A program made the translations under genes and the position numbers. Below, piece by piece: positions 5,307-12,985 of a stretch of DNA of 12,985 nucleotides (position 1 is the stretch's first letter; each line of letters opens with the position of its first letter). The stretch comes from a virus (taxonomy: Duplodnaviria > Heunggongvirae > Uroviricota > Caudoviricetes), in IMG/VR virus record IMGVR_UViG_2537561857_000027; one strand, written 5' to 3'. The notes under the pieces are model-generated. The model was given only the letters and a program-made list of their open reading frames with translations, made no database searches and was not told the DNA's origin.

Positions 5307-5367
5307 GAATCGTCTCCTTCCAGGCATCACATCATTCACACGCTTTATATATATAGGAAAAACGTGT

Positions 5368-5683
5368 CGCCTCAGTCGCCTCAGTTGCCTCAGTTGCCTC
5401 AAACGTCTTAACGTATTGATTTGATTAATAATCACAAAAAAATTGAGGCGACATCATGTCGATTTGAGGCAACAATAGGGGGTATTTGAGGCAACATCAC
5501 GTTGGTTCCGTTCAGACAAACAAAACCTGTCAGCCGTGTTGCCTCAAAATGGGCAGTTGTTGCCTCAAAATGGGTAATTGTTGCCTCAAAATGAGCAATT
5601 GTTGCCTCAGTAAAAACAGAAATAAAACATATAAATCAATCACATATATATATTTATTACTGTTTGAGGCAACTGAGGCAACA
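5368..5683. repeat. Iteron-type replication origin: at least 13 copies of the 9-mer GTTGCCTCA / TGAGGCAAC in both orientations, plus an AT-rich stretch (5611-5662)
   Basis: Four tandem 9-mers at 5368-5403; three inverted copies at 5444-5496; four copies at exact 21-bp spacing (5539, 5560, 5581, 5602); two inverted copies at 5666-5683. The array lies immediately downstream of the replication protein gene. Confidence 0.8.
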
Positions 5684-5707: not shown

Positions 5708-7846
5708 TTAATCGCTTCCCTCCTCATCGTGATTAGCGAACAACATCCCGTAGGCCCATAATTGCGCTCCATTAAGGTTCTTAAGGCGTGGGGTCTTGAT
5801 TTTCCATCCTCTCCCGCTCTCTGGTCGTTTCAGCATTCCAGCTTCGTGGAGTATTTTTGCAACGGTATCCTTGTTGAAGCCTTCCGCTACTTTCGATTTA
5901 AACGGCTCCGATAATACGTAAAACAACAATGGTTCATCGTAACGGCTTCCCGAATCCCTGTAGCCGTACAGCTCAGAAATCGGCAGGCTGGCTGGGTCAT
6001 AATCAACGGGCGCAAAACGGCTCATGCCGTAGGCAGCAAGAAACGCCTCTGCCTGCTCAATGATCTGTTTGTGTTCCTTGTTGCCCGTGCCAAATTCTTT
6101 TACCCAGGCATTAAATACATACTGAATTGCATCGCGGCATTCCTGCACGGACCAGCCAGTTACATGACCGGAAAGCACAAGCGCGGCCTCCAGTATGGAG
6201 AAACGTTCACCCACGCGGTGGACCTGCTCACCGTAATTGTCTGGAATGATATTTCGCCAGCGTGCACGGCTCTCTCTAACCGCGTCCTTAGCTTCCTGCT
6301 GGTTCTCCGCAAGCCATTTAATCCACTCACGCCCCGCTGCGCCGTGGTTTTCTTGCCATGCCGCCTTCAATGCGTCAGCGTGATCCTTTCCGTTGCTGTA
6401 TTCGTGTAACTGCGTGGCTTTTTGAATCGGGATATTGAGCAGGCGCACAAGTTGCCCGACCTTAACTTTTATCCCCGACGTTTTGAGGTATGTTTCGATA
6501 TCCACCTCTCCGGTGCTGATAGCAACGGTCCGCCAGTTTTTCAGCTCTCTGTTGCCGCCGTCCTTTGCCCCCTGTAATTTTCCGAATCCATTGAACAAAG
6601 TGTATGAGGATACGTACACGTCACGGGGGCTTCCTGCCTGCCCTATCTCGTCCAGTGGAAGGAGTCCGTGATTGTGTGCTTCTGCTTCGTTAGCTATCCC
6701 CAGCGCCGTTCCGTACCAGGTTAATCGCAGCGCCTCAGGATCGCCCCACAAGCTCGACGCGATGCTCTGCGTTGTGGTCTTGCCTGCTGTGGATTGCTCG
6801 AAAAAATGCACGCCAAAACCATCAGCGCCTGTCAGCCCGACTAATGGCGCGGATAATGACGTCGCTATACCCAGCATCATGAACGGATTGCCACCAGCCA
6901 GCCGCGCCACGCTGTCGCGCCAGCTTTCCGCCGTTCCTGCCACGGAATAACCGTTAATCGCGGCACTTTTTCCGGTAAACAAAACGGGCTTGTCAGATTC
7001 GCCGATAACCGTACCGTCCGGCATGATGTACGCGCCAAAATGCCAGCCAGCCTTCGGGCTTAAGTGCCATTCCTCATGCTGTCCGCCTAACTGCATCCAG
7101 TCAGCCAGGGGGATCCTGTGTTTTCCGTTTGTCGTGACTTTAAGCCCGTTGGCTTTCAGTAATCGCCAGCCGTCAGTGTCGCCTATTCCGCAGCAAGGCA
7201 CAGCCATAGTGACAAGCCGATTTGTTGTCGAATCTGTCCAGCGCATCACGCGGTAATGCTCGTTACCAATGACACCTGAACCGAGTAATTCAACGGAAGA
7301 ACACAGCCATTCGAACGGACGGATAATTTCGCCAGATTGCTTATCAACCTTTGGCGTCACCCAGTAAACGCCATCAGGACGGCATTCAACGCGGGGTTTT
7401 AATTCGTCATCATAATTTCCGGTGAAATTTGTCTTTGCCGGAAGATTGATCACCAGGCAGTTGCCGCGTTCCGCATCATCCTTCAGTCCAGCCATGCGCG
7501 GTGTCCAGTCCTCCGGCTGCTGGTCAACAAAGCCGCTGTAGCAGCGTGCCTCCTTTACACCCGCCACCGCAAGCAGTGTTGCTATCTGTAAAAGTGCTGT
7601 CTCTGATATTTCACCAGCACGATAAACGCGCACGTAATTGCGCCCTTTATCGATGATTTTCGTGTCTTCCAGGCTCGCCAGTTGTTTCGGTCCAAGAATA
7701 ACGGGCGGTGTATCATCTGCTGCAATATGCTTTCCGGCCCATTCGCTCCACTCTTTCGCATGTGCCCAGGCATCACTACCCGCAAAGATAATGACTTCGG
7801 TCATTTTGTCTTTCGGCTGTTTTTTTAAATTCGGTGCGCTTTTCAT
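5708..7846 (-). CDS. Satellite replication initiator, primase/helicase-like (pri-rep), 712 aa
   Basis: Large ORF adjacent to the iteron array. N-terminal region (MTEVIIFAGSDAWAHAKEW...) resembles Toprim/primase-type domains; the central region has a P-loop-like GKT segment (EQSTAGKTTTQS). The domain call is from pattern memory only. Start ATG overlaps the stop of the upstream gene (ATGA). Confidence 0.75.
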   Translation of the reverse strand: MKSAPNLKKQPKDKMTEVIIFAGSDAWAHAKEWSEWAGKHIAADDTPPVILGPKQLASLEDTKIIDKGRNYVRVYRAGEISETALLQIATLLAVAGVKEARCYSGFVDQQPEDWTPRMAGLKDDAERGNCLVINLPAKTNFTGNYDDELKPRVECRPDGVYWVTPKVDKQSGEIIRPFEWLCSSVELLGSGVIGNEHYRVMRWTDSTTNRLVTMAVPCCGIGDTDGWRLLKANGLKVTTNGKHRIPLADWMQLGGQHEEWHLSPKAGWHFGAYIMPDGTVIGESDKPVLFTGKSAAINGYSVAGTAESWRDSVARLAGGNPFMMLGIATSLSAPLVGLTGADGFGVHFFEQSTAGKTTTQSIASSLWGDPEALRLTWYGTALGIANEAEAHNHGLLPLDEIGQAGSPRDVYVSSYTLFNGFGKLQGAKDGGNRELKNWRTVAISTGEVDIETYLKTSGIKVKVGQLVRLLNIPIQKATQLHEYSNGKDHADALKAAWQENHGAAGREWIKWLAENQQEAKDAVRESRARWRNIIPDNYGEQVHRVGERFSILEAALVLSGHVTGWSVQECRDAIQYVFNAWVKEFGTGNKEHKQIIEQAEAFLAAYGMSRFAPVDYDPASLPISELYGYRDSGSRYDEPLLFYVLSEPFKSKVAEGFNKDTVAKILHEAGMLKRPESGRGWKIKTPRLKNLNGAQLWAYGMLFANHDEEGSD

Positions 7847-8198: not shown

Positions 8199-8390
8199 TT
8201 ATTGTTCGCCGCGTTTTTCTTCCTCCGTCATTAACCACACCGCCACATTGCTGGAAAGCTGTTTGATAAGTCCCGCAATAACAGAAAGGTCATGGTCGTC
8301 TATTTCTTCGTGGTTGCGTTCAATCATGCGGCTGATTACTTCGACCTGTTGCGCTTTCAGTGAGGCTTCTGCCAGTGTCATTTCCTGCAT
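8199..8390 (-). CDS. Hypothetical protein, 63 aa
   Basis: ATG overlaps the stop of the upstream 61-aa ORF (TAATG); G-rich SD-like stretch upstream. Confidence 0.5.
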   Translation of the reverse strand: MQEMTLAEASLKAQQVEVISRMIERNHEEIDDHDLSVIAGLIKQLSSNVAVWLMTEEEKRGEQ

Positions 8391-8575
8391 TACTGCACCC
8401 CCTTAATTTCATGAACGGCGTGGATAATTACGCCGGATAAACCGGCTTTAGCTGATTTGTTAATTACTGTGCTGATTGCAGCCTGGACGTTTTCGGCCTT
8501 CACGTTCTGCGTGATGCCAACGGTATAGCCGCGTGCATTAACGGCACGGGAAAAAACACGGAAGGTTTTAAGCAT
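8390..8575 (-). CDS. Hypothetical protein, 61 aa
   Basis: Strong SD: GGAGG with 6-nt spacer before the ATG at 8575. Confidence 0.55.
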   Translation of the reverse strand: MLKTFRVFSRAVNARGYTVGITQNVKAENVQAAISTVINKSAKAGLSGVIIHAVHEIKGVQ

Positions 8576-8738
8576 GAGTCACCTCCTGACGGATACGGGC
8601 GACAAAAATCAGATGTGCGTGCGGCAGCTGCGCGCGTGCTTCGCGCTCAGTGGCAGCGGTAACGGTGAATATTGCAATGCTACCTGTCAGGCACTGCATA
8701 AAGCGCCAGACAAAGTAAGGGCGTGCGGATACAGCCAT
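8568..8738 (-). CDS. Hypothetical small protein, 56 aa, with a hydrophobic core (LTGSIAIFTVTAAT); proposed real 3' part of the 504-aa track ORF
   Basis: Internal ATG at 8738 is preceded by GAGGAG with an 8-nt spacer, and codon usage improves from here to the stop. Its end overlaps the start of the next gene by 8 nt. Start assignment is by inference. Confidence 0.35.
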   Translation of the reverse strand: MAVSARPYFVWRFMQCLTGSIAIFTVTAATEREARAQLPHAHLIFVARIRQEVTHA

Positions 8739-8903
8739 GTGAAAGGCTCCTCTGACTTTGGGATTATACCCACCGCCGGAGGTGGTAAGCTCGCTGGCGG
8801 TGGACTGTACAGGGTTACCACAACTGGCGTTAGAGGAAACCAGCCCGACCGAAGTCGGCCCCATACAGCCCACCATTGTTGAGGTGTGCGTGTGCGCCGA
8901 TAC

Positions 8904-8924
8904 AAAAAAAGACGCTGGCGCGTC
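8904..8924 (-). terminator. Minus-strand intrinsic terminator (GACGC-tggc-GCGTC followed by T7 on the minus transcript)
   Basis: Plus-strand A7 at 8904-8910 precedes the hairpin at 8911-8924; an outer CGATACA/TGTATCG stem (8897-8903 with 8926-8932) encloses it. Confidence 0.5.
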
Positions 8925-9207
8925 GTGTATCGCCTCTAACTCCAGCGGGGTGGTAATCCCGATCCCCGTTTTATAAGGGATAGCCTCAGTATATGCCGCT
9001 TTTTTGCTTAAGTGGTCGGATGTGTTGCGAGAGAAGTTTGTGCGAAAAATACCTGCGTTTTCTTTGAAAGCACATAATAACATCACGTTATTTATGTTTA
9101 TGCAGTGTGTCGCAAAGCGACCTGAATCATCACGCAAATTACAACCATAAAAAATACCTGCGCTGTGATATGAGGTACTACAGCGCACCGCTTTACGGGT
9201 ACAGACA

Positions 9208-9387
9208 ATGACAAATGAAGAACTACAGGAAATCGCATTATCCATACTTGAGCGACAGCGCGAAAAAGTACGCCTGGAACGCGAGTCTTTGCTTAATCCC
9301 TCTCCTCTCACCAGACCAAAACGATTTGCGCTTGAGGCATTTCTGGACAAATACCCACGGCGATTAATCTCGCCTAAAAACCGATAG
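9208..9387 (+). CDS. Small basic/helical protein A, 59 aa (MTNEELQEIALSILERQREKVRLERESLLNPSPLTRPKRFALEAFLDKYPRRLISPKNR)
   Basis: Hand translation; below the track cut-off. Shares a C-terminal motif K(R/K)FALE(A/E)FL(D/R)KYPRRL...KNR with ORF B, and a similar 45-nt upstream region. Composition is protein-like. The coding strand is not proven (see findings). Confidence 0.4.
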   Translation: MTNEELQEIALSILERQREKVRLERESLLNPSPLTRPKRFALEAFLDKYPRRLISPKNR

Positions 9388-9483
9388 CGATCCGCTTTTG
9401 CTTCTCTGACTCCATAAAACGAATAACAACCATCAGCGCCGTGGTGTGAGGTGCTGCGTCGCTCCGCTGTACAGGAAATAAGT

Positions 9484-9762
9484 ATGGATTTACCACCAGA
9501 AGATGAGAAATTTTTACGACAACTACAACACCAACTACTCATGGATGCCATTGTCGAGCAGCAAACAGGGAGCAGCCCCATTGATTCATCGCTGAATAAA
9601 AAGGCCGCTTCCCGTTTTATTGAAAACAGGATAAGACGAGGAAAAACATGTGACGACGAGTCAAAGGCATCGCATACAAGAGATAAAAAATTTGCACTTG
9701 AAGAGTTTCTCAGGAAATACCCACGGCGGCTAAAAGCAACCAAAAATCGCCCGCCAGGCTGA
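9484..9762 (+). CDS. Small protein B, 92 aa, paralogue of protein A
   Basis: The track ORF 9451..9762 begins at GTG; the ATG at 9484 has AGGAA 6 nt upstream. C-terminal motif shared with protein A. Confidence 0.45.
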   Translation: MDLPPEDEKFLRQLQHQLLMDAIVEQQTGSSPIDSSLNKKAASRFIENRIRRGKTCDDESKASHTRDKKFALEEFLRKYPRRLKATKNRPPG

Positions 9763-9765
9763 TAG

Positions 9766-10076
9766 CATTGTCCACCAGCCTCAGATATGGCATTGTGGAT
9801 AATGCGCTTGATTTCCTTTATCTCCACTGGCGACCCTTTCGTGGTCGCCTTTGTTTTGCCTGCCATTCCTGCATCATGCGGATATTCGCGCCGTACAGGG
9901 CCACCAGCGCGATAATTTGATAAAGCCTCCTTCTGATAATGCTTAACGTGTTTCATGCGCTCAGCGGCGAAATGGCTCACGATATGGCGCATGTAATCAG
10001 CATGGTTGATGCTCACCTGTGCGAACTTATCCGCAGTATCGATGTACAGGGCGGCAGCGTTGCGGATGTCAGGCAT
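9766..10076 (-). CDS. Hypothetical protein (MPDIRNAAALYIDTADKFAQVSINHADYMRHIVSHFAAERMKHVKHYQKEAL...); start well supported, 3' end unresolved
   Basis: ATG at 10076 with GGAG about 9 nt upstream; it overlaps the stop of the upstream 51-aa gene by 8 nt (ATGCCTGA). The first 50 or so codons use E. coli-preferred codons (ATC, CTG, CGC, AAC, TTC). The frame has no stop until 8568. The lower coordinate given here is arbitrary. Confidence 0.3.
9829..9858 (+). terminator. Plus-strand intrinsic terminator (GGCGACC-ctttcgt-GGTCGCC followed by TTTGTTTTG)
   Basis: Perfect 7-bp GC-rich stem followed by a T-rich tract, about 70 bp downstream of ORF B. Confidence 0.6.
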
Positions 10077-10224
10077 GTTCACGTTCTCCCAGGCGACGGA
10101 CCAGCCAGCGTTGGGCTAATTCGGTGAGACGTTCTTTACGTTCTGGCGTTGGCATATCCATATCCAGTAGCGCACAGTTACGGCTTTCCAGATACGCGAG
10201 CAACGCCAGTTGATCAGCGGTCAT
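10069..10224 (-). CDS. Hypothetical small protein, 51 aa (MTADQLALLAYLESRNCALLDMDMPTPERKERLTELAQRWLVRRLGEREHA)
   Basis: Internal ATG at 10224 overlaps the stop of the Rha-family gene (ATGA); the track's longer 81-aa version would overlap that gene. Confidence 0.45.
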   Translation of the reverse strand: MTADQLALLAYLESRNCALLDMDMPTPERKERLTELAQRWLVRRLGEREHA

Positions 10225-10859
10225 ATGGTCACGAACTTTTTTTGATGGGATGCCGTTTTTTTGGCCCATACAGGCGGGTGCATCCCTAATACAAGGCGCG
10301 CAATGAAAGTACATTCGTTGTTATAAGCATGACCGTGTTGAGTATCTCCAGTGCGCTCAATGTATCCCTTCATGGCATCCCCCATAGAGCGCATCTCAGC
10401 TTTGGCCTCACATCTCTCTGCTATCCAGTTAGCCATGCGGTTAAACTGCGCAATGTATGCCTCTTTGAATGCAGCCGCTTTTTTTCCGGTAAATCCCATT
10501 GTTAAAAACACGAAGCCGTCTTTGGTGACTTCGTAGGCTTTCAATACGCGCCCCTTATGCTCAAATTTTACCCGCCGAAAATTGCGGGTTAAAAATTCAG
10601 CAGAACAACACAGGTTTTCAATCCGGTTAACAACCTTATCGTGATCCTTTCTGAAAAATCGGGCGATAGCCTGTGAAGTGGTTACAGGCTCACCGCCAGA
10701 AGGAAACACTTCCGGCGCGGTGAGTGCATTTTTATTTATTCCGTCAGCAATAATCTCATTGCCGGAAATTACCGGAATAATTGCGGCGAAATACTGTTGG
10801 CTCAGTTCTTCGGGCTGAACGAAGCCCTGCCCCTGTACGAGCATATTCGGACGTTTCAT
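10221..10859 (-). CDS. Phage regulatory protein, Rha family (212 aa)
   Basis: Residues about 57-140 (TTSQAIARFFRKDHDKVVNRIENL...RVLKAYEVTKDGFVFLTMGFTGKKAAAFKEAYIAQFNRM) match the Rha-domain signature as I remember it. AGGAG lies 7 nt upstream of the ATG at 10859. Confidence 0.75.
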   Translation of the reverse strand: MKRPNMLVQGQGFVQPEELSQQYFAAIIPVISGNEIIADGINKNALTAPEVFPSGGEPVTTSQAIARFFRKDHDKVVNRIENLCCSAEFLTRNFRRVKFEHKGRVLKAYEVTKDGFVFLTMGFTGKKAAAFKEAYIAQFNRMANWIAERCEAKAEMRSMGDAMKGYIERTGDTQHGHAYNNECTFIARLVLGMHPPVWAKKTASHQKKFVTI

Positions 10860-10924: not shown

Positions 10925-11128
10925 TTACGCGGCGTTGTTGCGAGAAGCATCAATACGCTGGTTAATCCATTCGTCGACTTCACTTTCAATAAAAGCCACG
11001 GAGCGGGGACCAATTTTTACCGGTTTAGGGAAACGCCCCAGGCTGATCAGGCGATAAATCCATGCGCGACCATAACCAGTACGGCGCATAACTTCAGAAA
11101 GACGGATGAATGAATTGTTATTAGCCAT
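10925..11128 (-). CDS. alpA: AlpA-family transcriptional regulator / excisionase-like protein (67 aa)
   Basis: MANNNSFIRLSEVMRRTGYGRAWIYRLISLGRFPKPVKIGPRSVAFIESEVDEWI matches the AlpA/Vis-type helix-turn-helix signature. AAGGAG upstream. Position just downstream of the integrase is typical for P4/PICI satellites. Confidence 0.85.
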   Translation of the reverse strand: MANNNSFIRLSEVMRRTGYGRAWIYRLISLGRFPKPVKIGPRSVAFIESEVDEWINQRIDASRNNAA

Positions 11129-11206
11129 TTATCAATCTCCTTAATGTTGACGCGGAAATCCCCTCCTGTGGCTTAGTAAGAGTTTTATTTGCGTCAAATT
11201 ACGAAC

Positions 11207-11239
11207 ACGACAAAAACCACAACATGAAAACATGTTGTG
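11207..11239 (-). terminator. Minus-strand intrinsic terminator (CCACAACATG-aaaa-CATGTTGTGG, then TTTTTGTCG on the minus transcript)
   Basis: Perfect 10-bp inverted repeat at 11216-11239 with the A-run on its plus-strand 5' side; about 530 nt downstream of the int stop and about 90 bp upstream of the alpA start. Confidence 0.6.
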
Positions 11240-11770
11240 GTATTGCATAAGATAAATTCAGATTGTTTGGTTGGTATGCTCCAGCAAGGTAGAGCTATTC
11301 CCGCTTTCGGCGGGGTCACACGATTAGGCGTGACGTCCAGTAGTTTTAAAGAGCGTTTTTTCAGTACATGGTGGGCGGACAAGAAAGCAATTGCGCTTTG
11401 TCAGCGCCGTAGATTCATATTTGAATCGTTGTATGTTTCCCGATAGCAAATCTATCGGTCACTGCGGGACGAACCATCCCGCCGCATCAATGTTAAAGAT
11501 CAACAGCACTTTGCCAGCGCTCCACCGCCTCATGGATGAATCATTACATGCTTTGTAATAGTGCATATATCACCATTCTTTCCTGCATCAGGAAAGCACT
11601 AAAGGCTGTTAAAGAGCATCCAGCTTTTCAGCTGCGTAGAAGACTCAATCTTCGTTGTTACAAAGAGCGCCCATACATGACGGATAACTGCGTGAAAAAC
11701 CCTCTGTAAGGATGTTAGCTGTAGCTTTCCGTGTACGTTAGTATACATCTGTATACTTGTCCAGTCGTTT

Positions 11771-12985
11771 TTATGCACATACACCAAACTTGCCGTGCAC
11801 CACGTTACCGCCCTGTTCCAGTGAGTCCATATAGTCGGCGTACCACTGGAGCATCTCCCGCCGTCCGTCCAGATATTGCGCGTGATTGTATGTGCCACGG
11901 ATCGAGTTTTTATCGACGTGCGCCAGCTGCGTTTCTATCCATGCGGAGTTATACCCCTGCTCGTGCAAAATCGTACTCATGGTGTGCCGGAACCCATGAC
12001 CAGTAACACGCCCTGCATAACCAATACGACGAATAAGCACGTTCATCGCCATTTCACTCATCGGTTTACTGTGCTGTATTCGACCAGGGAAAATAAACGG
12101 ATACTGCCCCGTCATGTGTTTCAGTTGTTCCAGAATAGCAATCGCCTGTTCTGAAAGCGGCACGCAATGAGGACGGCGCATTTTCATTCGTTCTTTCGGC
12201 ACTTCCCACAGACGATTATCAAAATCAATCTCCTGCCACTCTGCCTGCCGTAATTCACCAGGGCGGAGTCCTGTAAGAATCAACAATCGCATACCCAGCT
12301 TGACGATCTGGCTTCCGGTGTACGTATTAAAAACGCGGAAAAACTCCGGTAGCTCATCAACTTTCAGATACGCGTAATGCTCTTTCTTGTGTGGTGCAAA
12401 TGCGCTTGCCAGATCAGGAGCGGGGTTATATTCAGCGCGTCCGGTAATTATTGCGTACCGGAACACTTCGCCACATCGCTGGCGAACCTTACGCAATTTT
12501 TCAGTTGCGCCACGGTCATTAAGACGGGATAGAACCGCGAGCAATTCCATCGGCTTAATCTCTGCGATGGGCCTACCTCCAATGTACGGAAAAACGTCTT
12601 TTTCAAACGTCTCTATCATTTCCTCTGCATATGAGGGAGACCATCGGTCCAGGCGTTTTTCATACCACTCACGGGCGATCGCCTCAAAGGTGTTACCGCA
12701 TTTGTTCGCCTGTTCTCGCTTTTGGGCCTTTCTGACCTCACTCGGATTAACTCCACCAGCGATAAGCCTTTTGGCCTCATCCCTTGCCGTCCTGGCATCA
12801 GAAAGGGACACCTCAGGATAAACACCCAGCGACAACATTTTGGGCTTGCCTGCAAACCTGTATCGCAATCGCCAGCCCTTCGAACCGTTCGGCTCAATGA
12901 GTAACGAAAGCCCGTTGCCGTCATTGAGTGTATAGGCTTTCTCTTTTGGCTTCGCGCGGCGGATAGCAAGGTCTGAAAGCAACAT
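11771..12985 (-). CDS. int: P4-type tyrosine integrase (404 aa), complete
   Basis: N-terminus MLLSDLAIRRAKPKEKAYTLNDGNGLSLLIEPNGSKGWRLRYRFAGKPKMLSLGVYPEVSLSDAR is the conserved P4-integrase N-terminal domain; C-terminus has the catalytic region (HGFRHT ... RGTYNHAQY). ATG is at 12985-12983, the window edge, so the attachment site lies beyond the window. Confidence 0.95.
   Translation of the reverse strand: MLLSDLAIRRAKPKEKAYTLNDGNGLSLLIEPNGSKGWRLRYRFAGKPKMLSLGVYPEVSLSDARTARDEAKRLIAGGVNPSEVRKAQKREQANKCGNTFEAIAREWYEKRLDRWSPSYAEEMIETFEKDVFPYIGGRPIAEIKPMELLAVLSRLNDRGATEKLRKVRQRCGEVFRYAIITGRAEYNPAPDLASAFAPHKKEHYAYLKVDELPEFFRVFNTYTGSQIVKLGMRLLILTGLRPGELRQAEWQEIDFDNRLWEVPKERMKMRRPHCVPLSEQAIAILEQLKHMTGQYPFIFPGRIQHSKPMSEMAMNVLIRRIGYAGRVTGHGFRHTMSTILHEQGYNSAWIETQLAHVDKNSIRGTYNHAQYLDGRREMLQWYADYMDSLEQGGNVVHGKFGVCA

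Follow-up and report, generated by a model that had tools for sequence, protein, structure and literature searches.

A long stop-free frame antisense to a conserved gene cassette in the putative immunity region of an Escherichia coli island

We analysed a 12,985-nt stretch of viral DNA (IMG/VR record IMGVR_UViG_2537561857_000027; Caudoviricetes), hereafter the window, which is an identical match to an island adjoining a tRNA-Gly gene in Escherichia coli S1-KEN-03-A. Between the alpA/rha genes and the replication operon of this element, a minus-strand frame of 504 codons runs without a stop through two small plus-strand genes and their terminator, and then through predicted immunity RNAs. We conclude that this is probably the immunity and early-control region of a P4-like or phage-inducible chromosomal island (PICI)-type island, in which the 504-codon frame is the counterpart of the eta gene of phage P4 and is kept open for read-through translation. 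The evidence comes from the stop and codon content of both strands in homologous islands, from the RNA module inside the frame, and from comparison with P4.

The open minus-strand frame

All long genes of the window lie on the minus strand. The long frame contains no stops over 504 codons from its start (515 from stop to stop). Its likely start is ATG 10076, 5 nt ahead of the stop of the upstream rha gene; a GTG at 10082 is also in frame. An earlier interpretation made from the letters alone (hereafter the sequence-only reading) had called this gene start and this frame length, and both held up under open reading frame (ORF) analysis and through the overlap of start and stop (ATGCCTGA). It had also described the middle of the frame as rich in Ser, Cys and Arg and in rare codons. 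The composition agrees: Ser, Cys and Arg together make up 34% of residues 106-363 (12% in the primase of the island), and rare codons account for 4.3% against 2.5%. Opposite the frame lie two plus-strand ORFs, ORF A and ORF B. The third codon positions of the minus frame coincide with those of both plus ORFs (coordinates 0 mod 3), such that the two strands share their wobble positions, as had been recognised.

Over window positions 8982-10075 the long frame has 0 stops, compared with 25 and 14 in the other two minus frames. From the start to the leader RNA described below, the frame is likewise free of stops in the window and in homologous islands that we refer to by locus number (L004, L007, L010, L013, L014 and L016); the other minus frames of these loci contain 9-38. 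The stop-free minus frame spans 0.7–1.3 kb in seven islands, five diverged lineages among them, and these seven carry very different plus ORFs. Longer examples were found in L019, where a 646-codon open frame (633 amino acids, aa) runs over four antisense units, and in L020, where a frame of 541 codons (540 aa) runs over two.

Expected numbers of stops were estimated separately for the parts outside and inside the plus ORFs. Dinucleotide shuffles of the non-ORF parts of five loci (promoters, leaders, spacers and terminator) predicted 4.8-11.5 stops per locus, and 9.0 for those of the window; none was observed. The codon tests covered 12 plus ORFs (869 codons), with their protein sequences held fixed. 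Synonymous resampling predicted 12.7 antisense stops. Permuting the ORFs' own codons predicted 8.4 ± 2.4, with a minimum of 1 across 20,000 permutations. Again, none was observed. The avoidance is visible in individual codon choices: a T-ending codon precedes none of the 71 His/Gln codons, and a C/T-ending codon precedes none of the 11 Tyr codons. The other two antisense phases of the same 12 ORFs contain 39 and 54 stops. These counts indicate that the open minus frame is more than a by-product of the plus ORFs.

Conservation of the encoded peptide was assessed over the first 106 codons, which were compared with those of four relatives. Substitutions were spread evenly over the three codon positions (6/8/8, 5/4/4, 10/7/6 and 4/6/4), with approximately three amino-acid-changing codons per silent codon. 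The peptide of this sampled N-terminal third appears to evolve neutrally. The N-termini of the L013 and L014 frames appear unrelated to that of the window, as judged by eye from their translations, and residues 1-336 of the long frame matched no family in Pfam, NCBIfam or PHROGs.

Homologues with only one strand interrupted had been named in the sequence-only reading as the cases that could overturn it. Intact islands keep the frames of both strands. Three remnants decayed by insertion sequences and lacking the primase operon (L005, L006 and L008) depart from this pattern in one direction, with stops in the minus frame and an intact ORF A. Overall, the comparisons argue that both strands are constrained, the plus strand for its genes and the minus strand for its open frame.

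The immunity module and its likeness to P4

Rfam models identified a full-length C4/CI-type antisense RNA within the long frame, preceded by a seqA/isrK-type leader RNA (Table 1). In sister islands the leader model scored 49.6-52.1 bits. IsrK has been described as structurally homologous to SeqA, the leader of P4-like phages (PMC4825925), and P4 CI and seqA are detected with the C4 and isrK profiles (PMC10111431). A minus-strand terminator had been noticed here from the letters alone; it is present, but the sequence-only reading missed that it belongs to the leader.

The C4 loop CCUCUAACGCCAG (8836..8824) is complementary at 12 of 13 positions to the leader target CUGGAGUUAGAGG. It also pairs at 7 of 8 positions with AGUCAGAGGAG, at the Shine–Dalgarno (SD) sequence of a small Kil/Icd-like ORF. 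Across 10 modules, from different islands and P4, the variable loop co-varies with its targets, and in the nine modules besides that of the window the position just 5' of the Icd ribosome-binding site matches the loop perfectly. Such co-variation of loop and target is the pattern expected of a working antisense specificity determinant. The Kil/Icd-like ORF is in frame with the long ORF, of which it forms the last 56 codons, and is matched by NCBIfam NF033153 (phage_ICD_like) at 48.4 bits (cut-off 25).

A candidate internal leftward promoter lies near 8990. Its predicted -10 element, TATACT, has a poor -35 and ends 7 nt upstream of A8981, where the isrK model begins. It lies within a block (8989-9055) that is conserved in the window, L004, L006, L010 and L011, and the P4 equivalent at the same place reads TTGCCT-18-TATAGT.

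In P4 (NC_001609), a 199-codon frame whose ATG overlaps the vis stop (ATGA) contains an isrK match (8692..8615) and a C4 match (8507..8420), and its product matches Phage_ASH (82 bits) and then ICD_like (73 bits). This frame is eta, and kil is its last 65 codons. The window shows the same order: an alpA/vis-type gene, a long ORF starting on the upstream stop, a putative internal promoter, an isrK-type leader, a C4-type RNA, an in-frame Icd-like ORF and a primase operon. In both elements the C-terminus of the long ORF bears the Phage_ASH and ICD_like signature. The differences concern length and content. Whereas eta has 199 codons and approximately 75 nt from start to leader, the window ORF has 504 codons and 1,095 nt, and the extra stretch holds the convergent plus unit (two genes and a terminator) that P4 lacks. 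Direct protein similarity of the window frame to Eta is negligible outside the translated terminator. The window also lacks sid, delta and psu, and its primase is of the DUF927 type.

By sequence, the window holds four parts of a P4-type immunity module, namely a C4/CI RNA, a complementary leader with its terminator, a Kil/Icd ORF with a second target, and an eta-type long ORF. By gene content (int, alpA, rha, DUF4222, DUF927 primase, SSB and a methylase/nuclease pair), the element is better described as PICI-like than as a P4-like satellite. The sequence-only reading had placed a satellite-like immunity or control region between the alpA/rha module and the replication operon. The control region stands; the C4 RNA, the leader, the Kil/Icd ORF and the eta counterpart had escaped it. 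It had also suggested that control might work through sense and antisense expression of the two strands; in regions of this type, the control elements known so far are the immunity RNA and translation of the long frame.

The P4 model supplies a mechanism. As outlined in the P4 passages of PMC10111431 (citing Forti et al. 1999), a constitutive promoter lies inside eta and its transcripts are quickly terminated via the CI/seqA interaction; Kil is a truncated Eta; and full-length Eta is translated only from an upstream late promoter, coupled to the alpA homologue, with translation preventing termination. By analogy, transcripts from the internal promoter of the window would terminate in the leader in the quiescent state and yield the immunity RNA, which would keep Kil and the downstream replication genes silent. 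As the long frame starts upstream of the putative internal promoter, it would be translatable only on transcripts arriving from the alpA/rha side. On those transcripts, ribosomes on the long frame would pass the leader terminator and the immunity RNA and prevent termination, and induction from upstream would thereby reach the primase operon despite immunity. The 1999 work on eta is also said to have found that nonsense codons lead to premature termination and that their suppression restored read-through.

For the window, we infer a role of translation in anti-termination from this analogy with P4. If read-through is borne by ribosomes, the frame must stay open from its start to the leader, antisense cassette included, while the peptide is irrelevant. 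We propose that the frame is stop-free, yet its sampled peptide unconserved, because translation itself protects the read-through transcript.

The RNA module also bears on annotation. Pfam Phage_ASH matches residues 364-450 of the long frame, which are the translated RNA region, and NCBIfam phage_ICD_like matches residues 457-499. The NCBI Prokaryotic Genome Annotation Pipeline (PGAP) labels the whole frame an 'Icd-like protein' of 502 aa. That label misfits the frame, as the 48-position model covers only residues 457-499. The Phage_ASH matches lie mostly over the translated seqA leader and C4/CI RNA region, both in the window (8733-8993) and in P4 (8330-8705), and several PHROG 'transcriptional repressor/regulator' families also match the window frame at 8733-8993. 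In the protein database we counted 308 clusters of long 'Icd-like' or 'Ash' ORFs, with lengths of 287-757 aa among the 120 listed. The labels 'Ash family protein' and long 'Icd-like protein' appear mostly to mark RNA genes and the read-through frame.

Several islands carry two tandem immunity modules, each with leader, C4 RNA and Icd-like ORF, whose C4 loops differ (Table 1). This arrangement suggests two immunity specificities in series. In the O157:H7 locus L006, the small RNA Esr41 of enterohaemorrhagic E. coli (RF02676, 108.6 bits) lies at 5318-5391, approximately 2 kb from a decayed cassette remnant. C4 targets were also sought in the leaders of the plus-strand cassette; only matches with 3 mismatches were found, no better than chance.

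The plus-strand cassette and the surrounding island

The plus-strand cassette consists of two tandem units, each with a related leader and an ORF ending in K(R/K)FALE(A/E)FL(D/R)KYPRRL...KNR, much as the sequence-only reading had described them. The leaders of ORF A and ORF B belong to a repeat family (11-unit alignment, mean column identity 78%), and a conserved leader stands ahead of each KYPRRL-type ORF. In the 11 units, 87.9% of the cells in the leader hairpin can pair as plus-strand RNA and 79.8% as minus-strand RNA; at 4 pairs, both partners differ between units. The hairpin was also considered as a minus-strand terminator, given the T-rich run that follows it. This was rejected, as pairing is better on the plus strand and the terminator filter passed only one of the scanned copies. 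The plus-strand terminator behind the cassette, which the sequence-only reading had pointed out, was recovered by the terminator scan. Such a terminator follows the cassette in all 7 loci scanned, in at least four unrelated sequences. A putative rightward promoter, read from sequence, would drive the cassette and has a counterpart in L011 (TTGCAA-17-TATATT).

In every locus fetched, the cassette genes occupy the same site, on the opposite strand between int-alpA(-rha/antA/GIY-YIG) and icd...primase, and this synteny is unchanged in L010, L011, L013, L014 and L016. The cassette ranges from one to four head-to-tail units, with two in the window. L007 has a single-unit cassette, lacking exactly the 122 codons that separate one C-terminal motif from the other.

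Other E. coli islands have annotated homologues of ORF A that are 62 aa long. An exhaustive hidden Markov model search of 1.8 billion representatives returned only 19 proteins of the family, among them proteins of 56-78 aa with unrelated N-termini and a common C-terminal motif and stop. The consensus of the tail is (K/R)(F/Y)ALE(D/E)F(L/V)DK(Y/H/C)PRRLK(S/A)GKNRPPG*, where the asterisk is the stop. Between homologues the third codon position is the most variable, and in 11 of 12 pairs fewer amino acids change if the sequence is read on the plus rather than the minus strand. An AlphaFold (AF2) model of ORF A has one long and one short helix, with a mean predicted local distance difference test (pLDDT) score of 79.6. 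Conservation of this kind indicates that the small proteins with the FALExFLxKYPRRLKxxKNRPPG tail are a real, uncharacterised family. A pattern search of species-representative genomes found matches only in E. coli and Shigella, and the phage collection gave no cassette match.

Two further features of the cassette were seen. A 13-codon mini-ORF (MRYYSAPLYGYRQ, then a stop) at window 9170-9211 starts in the leader hairpin loop, and its TGA overlaps the start of ORF A (ATGA). The arrangement recurs in several units but not in L010b, L011b or L016b, and we make no claim for the mini-ORF. In some islands the cassette opens with a different ORF of 59-96 aa (MATKAVNAKSQTVAARVPHEV...), also in the wobble-sharing phase. 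This ORF lies behind a good promoter (TTGAAC-17-CATACT, with TG) and GTGTT(A/G)AACAC direct repeats that look like operators. A guess that the first plus ORF of L013, L014 and L016 is a ribbon-helix-helix repressor found no support: the best Pfam match, PSK_trans_fac, had E=0.013 and came from 1 of the 3 proteins, and the PDB search gave nothing relevant.

Table 1. Coordinates of the features discussed, in the window unless a locus is named.
Feature	Position	Strand	Details
Integrase	12985..11771	-	
alpA	11128..10925	-	
rha, frameshifted	10859..10069	-	
rha, 3' part	10069..10314	-	stop overlaps long-ORF start (ATGCCTGA, 10076-10069)
Long frame, 504 codons	10082..8568	-	
Predicted -10 (TATACT) of PLE-like promoter inside long ORF	8993..8988	-	read from sequence
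seqA/isrK-type leader RNA	8981..8905	-	Rfam RF01394, 48.3 bits (gathering score 50)
seqA-like target in leader	8945..8933	-	CUGGAGUUAGAGG; inverted repeat
Intrinsic terminator of leader	stem 8924..8911, then T run	-	terminator scan
C4/CI-type antisense immunity RNA	8880..8793	-	Rfam RF01695, 77.7 bits (gathering score 45), full length
seqC-like second target	8757..8747	-	AGUCAGAGGAG; covers Kil/Icd SD; read from sequence
Nested Kil/Icd-like ORF, 56 aa	8738..8568	-	MAVSARPYFVWRF...; SD GAGGAG 8753..8748; ATG 8738
First gene after long ORF, 61 aa, phrog_3672	8390..8575	-	start overlaps long-ORF stop (ATGCTTAA, 8575-8568)
DUF927 primase	7846..5708	-	
Candidate rightward promoter	9025..9053	+	TTGCGA-17-AATACC; read from sequence; back to back with leftward promoter
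Leader hairpin, unit A	9160..9186	+	GCGCTGTGA...TACAGCGC, GAGG in loop; 11-unit comparison
ORF A, 59 aa	9208-9387	+	long helix, short FALEAFLD helix, basic tail
Leader hairpin, unit B	9436..9462	+	11-unit comparison
ORF B, paralogue of ORF A	9451/9484-9762	+	103 aa from GTG, 92 aa from ATG 9484; ends FALEEFLRKYPRRLKATKNRPPG
Intrinsic terminator of cassette	9829-9849 + T tract, to 9858	+	GGCGACC-ctttcgt-GGTCGCC-TTTGTTTTG; inside minus frame
Alternative first plus ORF	L013 1271-1450 and 2060-2350; L014 3764-3943; L016 2438-2617	+	MATKAVNAKSQTVAARVPHEV...
Tandem immunity modules	L002 2501-3476; L003 2501-3470; L010 3607-4576; L014 2904-3368		
Shared tail of upstream genes	window 10069-10120; L003 4558-4620; L004 4035-4090; L007 3704-3760		

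Past the long frame, the gene order is two small ORFs, DUF4222, the DUF927 primase, a single-stranded DNA-binding protein (SSB) and a methylase/nuclease pair. The 61-aa phrog_3672 gene heads the run to DUF4222 and the primase, which is reached by a chain of overlapping ORFs. On the upstream side, rha is broken into two frames of 212 aa and 81 aa in the window, which PGAP calls frameshifted; an intact copy of 258 aa is present in L019 (1732-2508). Genes of different families at this upstream position (Rha, GIY-YIG nuclease and AntA/AntB) share a near-identical tail, ...QRWL(V/A)RR(L/M)GE(R/H)EHA followed by the stop, over the start of the long ORF. The common tail looks like a fixed recombination junction for module swapping.

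Further observations concern the rest of the island. A strong intrinsic terminator with an 11-bp stem and T run lies between int and alpA (window 11216-11241, minus strand). It follows that alpA must have its own promoter within 11129-11215, although the consensus scan called none there. Just beyond the 3' end of the primase, a 21-nt unit TGTTGCCTCAAAATGGGCAAT is repeated 3.5 times, with a short inverted copy close by (window 5537-5609 and 5665-5682). These repeats look like the iterons of an island replication origin. Weak Rfam matches to plant microRNAs there were discarded as artefacts of the same repeat. A 9-nt unit GTCGCCTCA occurs four times at window 5366-5401, within a 181-aa ORF upstream of SSB, where the coding strand reads LRQLRQLRRLRR.

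Competing explanations and significance

The preferred explanation, an eta counterpart kept open for read-through translation, extends to a broader and more tentative idea. These islands may hold a class of frame selected for translatability rather than for its product, which runs fully antisense to one to four genes and a terminator over 0.8-1.4 kb and invariably keeps to the wobble-sharing phase, and cassette and read-through frame may together form a switch. With the cassette on, read-through from upstream would be blocked; with the read-through transcript translated, the cassette would be overridden and the replication genes expressed. A regulatory role for the cassette, possibly with convergent transcription as a lock on basal read-through arriving from alpA, is speculative.

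Several observations weigh against the read-through explanation. The isrK match in the window is 1.7 bits under the gathering score of 50, and a consensus promoter scan called neither the internal leftward promoter, with its poor -35, nor the plus-strand promoter. The promoters, transcripts and translation of both strands are deduced from the DNA. The small plus-strand proteins had no match in Pfam, NCBIfam, PHROGs, PADLOC or the PDB sequence search. In L007 and L013 the long frame stops close to the Icd start but in a different frame, and in L011 two overlapping frames take its place. Ribosomes would reach the long ORF from rha, whose frameshift in the window may leave this island copy partly defective. 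A Rho-loading site was sought by GC skew on the minus RNA and no clear C-rich tract was found; Rho dependence is a property not predictable from sequence. Finally, the loci compared share recombining modules and are not fully independent.

We consider it unlikely that the frame is open because a full-length polypeptide is needed, such as a Bro-network/Eta-type fusion that delivers or regulates Kil/Icd, with the middle as a tolerated linker dictated by the antisense genes. PGAP and other pipelines do annotate the frame as one protein, a genuine AntA domain is fused in frame to the long ORF in some islands (L020), and P4 eta is treated as a Bro-network gene (PMC10111431). However, the N-terminal third shows no purifying selection and, as judged by eye, appears unrelated between lineages. 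Ser, Cys and Arg form 34% of the middle, and only the Ash/Icd end matches any family. In L007 and L013, moreover, the frames are not fused to Icd yet stay open across the cassette. A different purpose for translation, namely ribosome delivery to Kil and the downstream genes, or shielding of the RNA from nucleases or from pairing with plus-strand mRNA, seems to us quite improbable. It would suit the stop/start overlaps at both ends of the frame (ATGCCTGA and ATGCTTAA; Table 1) and the chain of overlapping ORFs down to the primase. It is hard to separate from translation that prevents termination, and nothing here distinguishes the two, although the premature termination reportedly caused by eta nonsense codons in P4 speaks against it.

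Very improbable is coding by one strand alone, with the other frame as its shadow, whether it is the plus ORFs that are spurious or the minus frame that arose as a by-product. Shared wobble positions do mean that each reading largely determines the other. The sequence-only reading had also warned that substitutions between the two repeats cannot decide the coding strand, and the strand substitution tests are indeed weak (14 wobble-only changes silent on the plus strand only, against 8 silent on the minus strand only). A minus frame open by chance is nevertheless difficult to reconcile with stop-free spacers, promoters and terminators outside the ORFs of five lineages, or with codon choice inside the plus ORFs that avoids antisense stops. 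For plus ORFs as shadows, the difficulty is that start, leader, C-terminal motif and stop are conserved across units with unrelated N-termini, that every locus has a dedicated plus-strand terminator, and that ORF A remains intact where the minus frame of the remnants is broken.

Other systems share parts of this arrangement. As in the immI region of P1/P7 (c4 - icd - ant), a C4-family RNA would be processed from a transcript that bears its targets, and one target covers the ribosome-binding site of an Icd-type small ORF, itself coupled to the genes that follow. Unlike immI, the window has no ant after Icd, and its antirepressor-like genes (rha, antA) lie upstream. P1 is not known to have a long read-through ORF. 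P2/186-type phages use face-to-face promoter switches with an overlap of tens of bases between the promoters. There too, convergent transcription units stand at a lysis/lysogeny-type decision point, and these phages are a possible model for the plus cassette; the window type differs in its 0.8-1.4 kb of fully overlapping reading frames.

In the isrK-orf45-anrP region of Salmonella Gifsy-1, a leader small RNA detected by the same Rfam model ends at an intrinsic terminator, which lets some transcription through into a small, downstream-coupled ORF (PMC4825925). There, IsrK is an in trans activator of translation (PMC4825925), and descriptions of the locus mention no C4 RNA separating leader from ORF, no overlapping long ORF and no genes on the antisense strand. 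The overall plan is also that of Gram-negative PICIs with a 'Bro zone', which have four zones (int-alpA, Bro-type genes with C4/isrK matches, replication and cargo) and long 'Ash/Icd-like' ORFs (PMC10111431). Searched by terms, that paper returned no description of opposite-strand genes in the long ORF or of selection for openness.

The immunity module and the eta principle were already known. In the literature searched, we did not find descriptions of a much longer eta-type frame over a conserved convergent cassette, of the fixed wobble-sharing phase, or of codon-level evidence for openness without a conserved product. The reading given here would explain an annotation oddity: the hundreds of 'Icd-like' or 'Ash family' proteins of 287-757 aa in E. 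coli genomes would mostly not be proteins in the usual sense. They would instead be eta-type read-through frames over RNA genes and opposite-strand genes. It would also add comparative, codon-level evidence that selection acts, in a wide range of satellite-like islands, on the translation-dependent anti-termination described for P4 eta in 1999. An uncharacterised small-protein family is located at the decision point of these mobile elements. For antisense overlapping genes in bacteria, the region offers a clean test case, as the shared wobble positions allow single-base changes that introduce a stop on one strand and leave the protein of the other unaltered. If the tentative view of a frame selected for translatability only, and of a switch, is true, few natural examples of long antisense overlapping coding in bacteria with a mechanism to account for it would be clearer than these islands.

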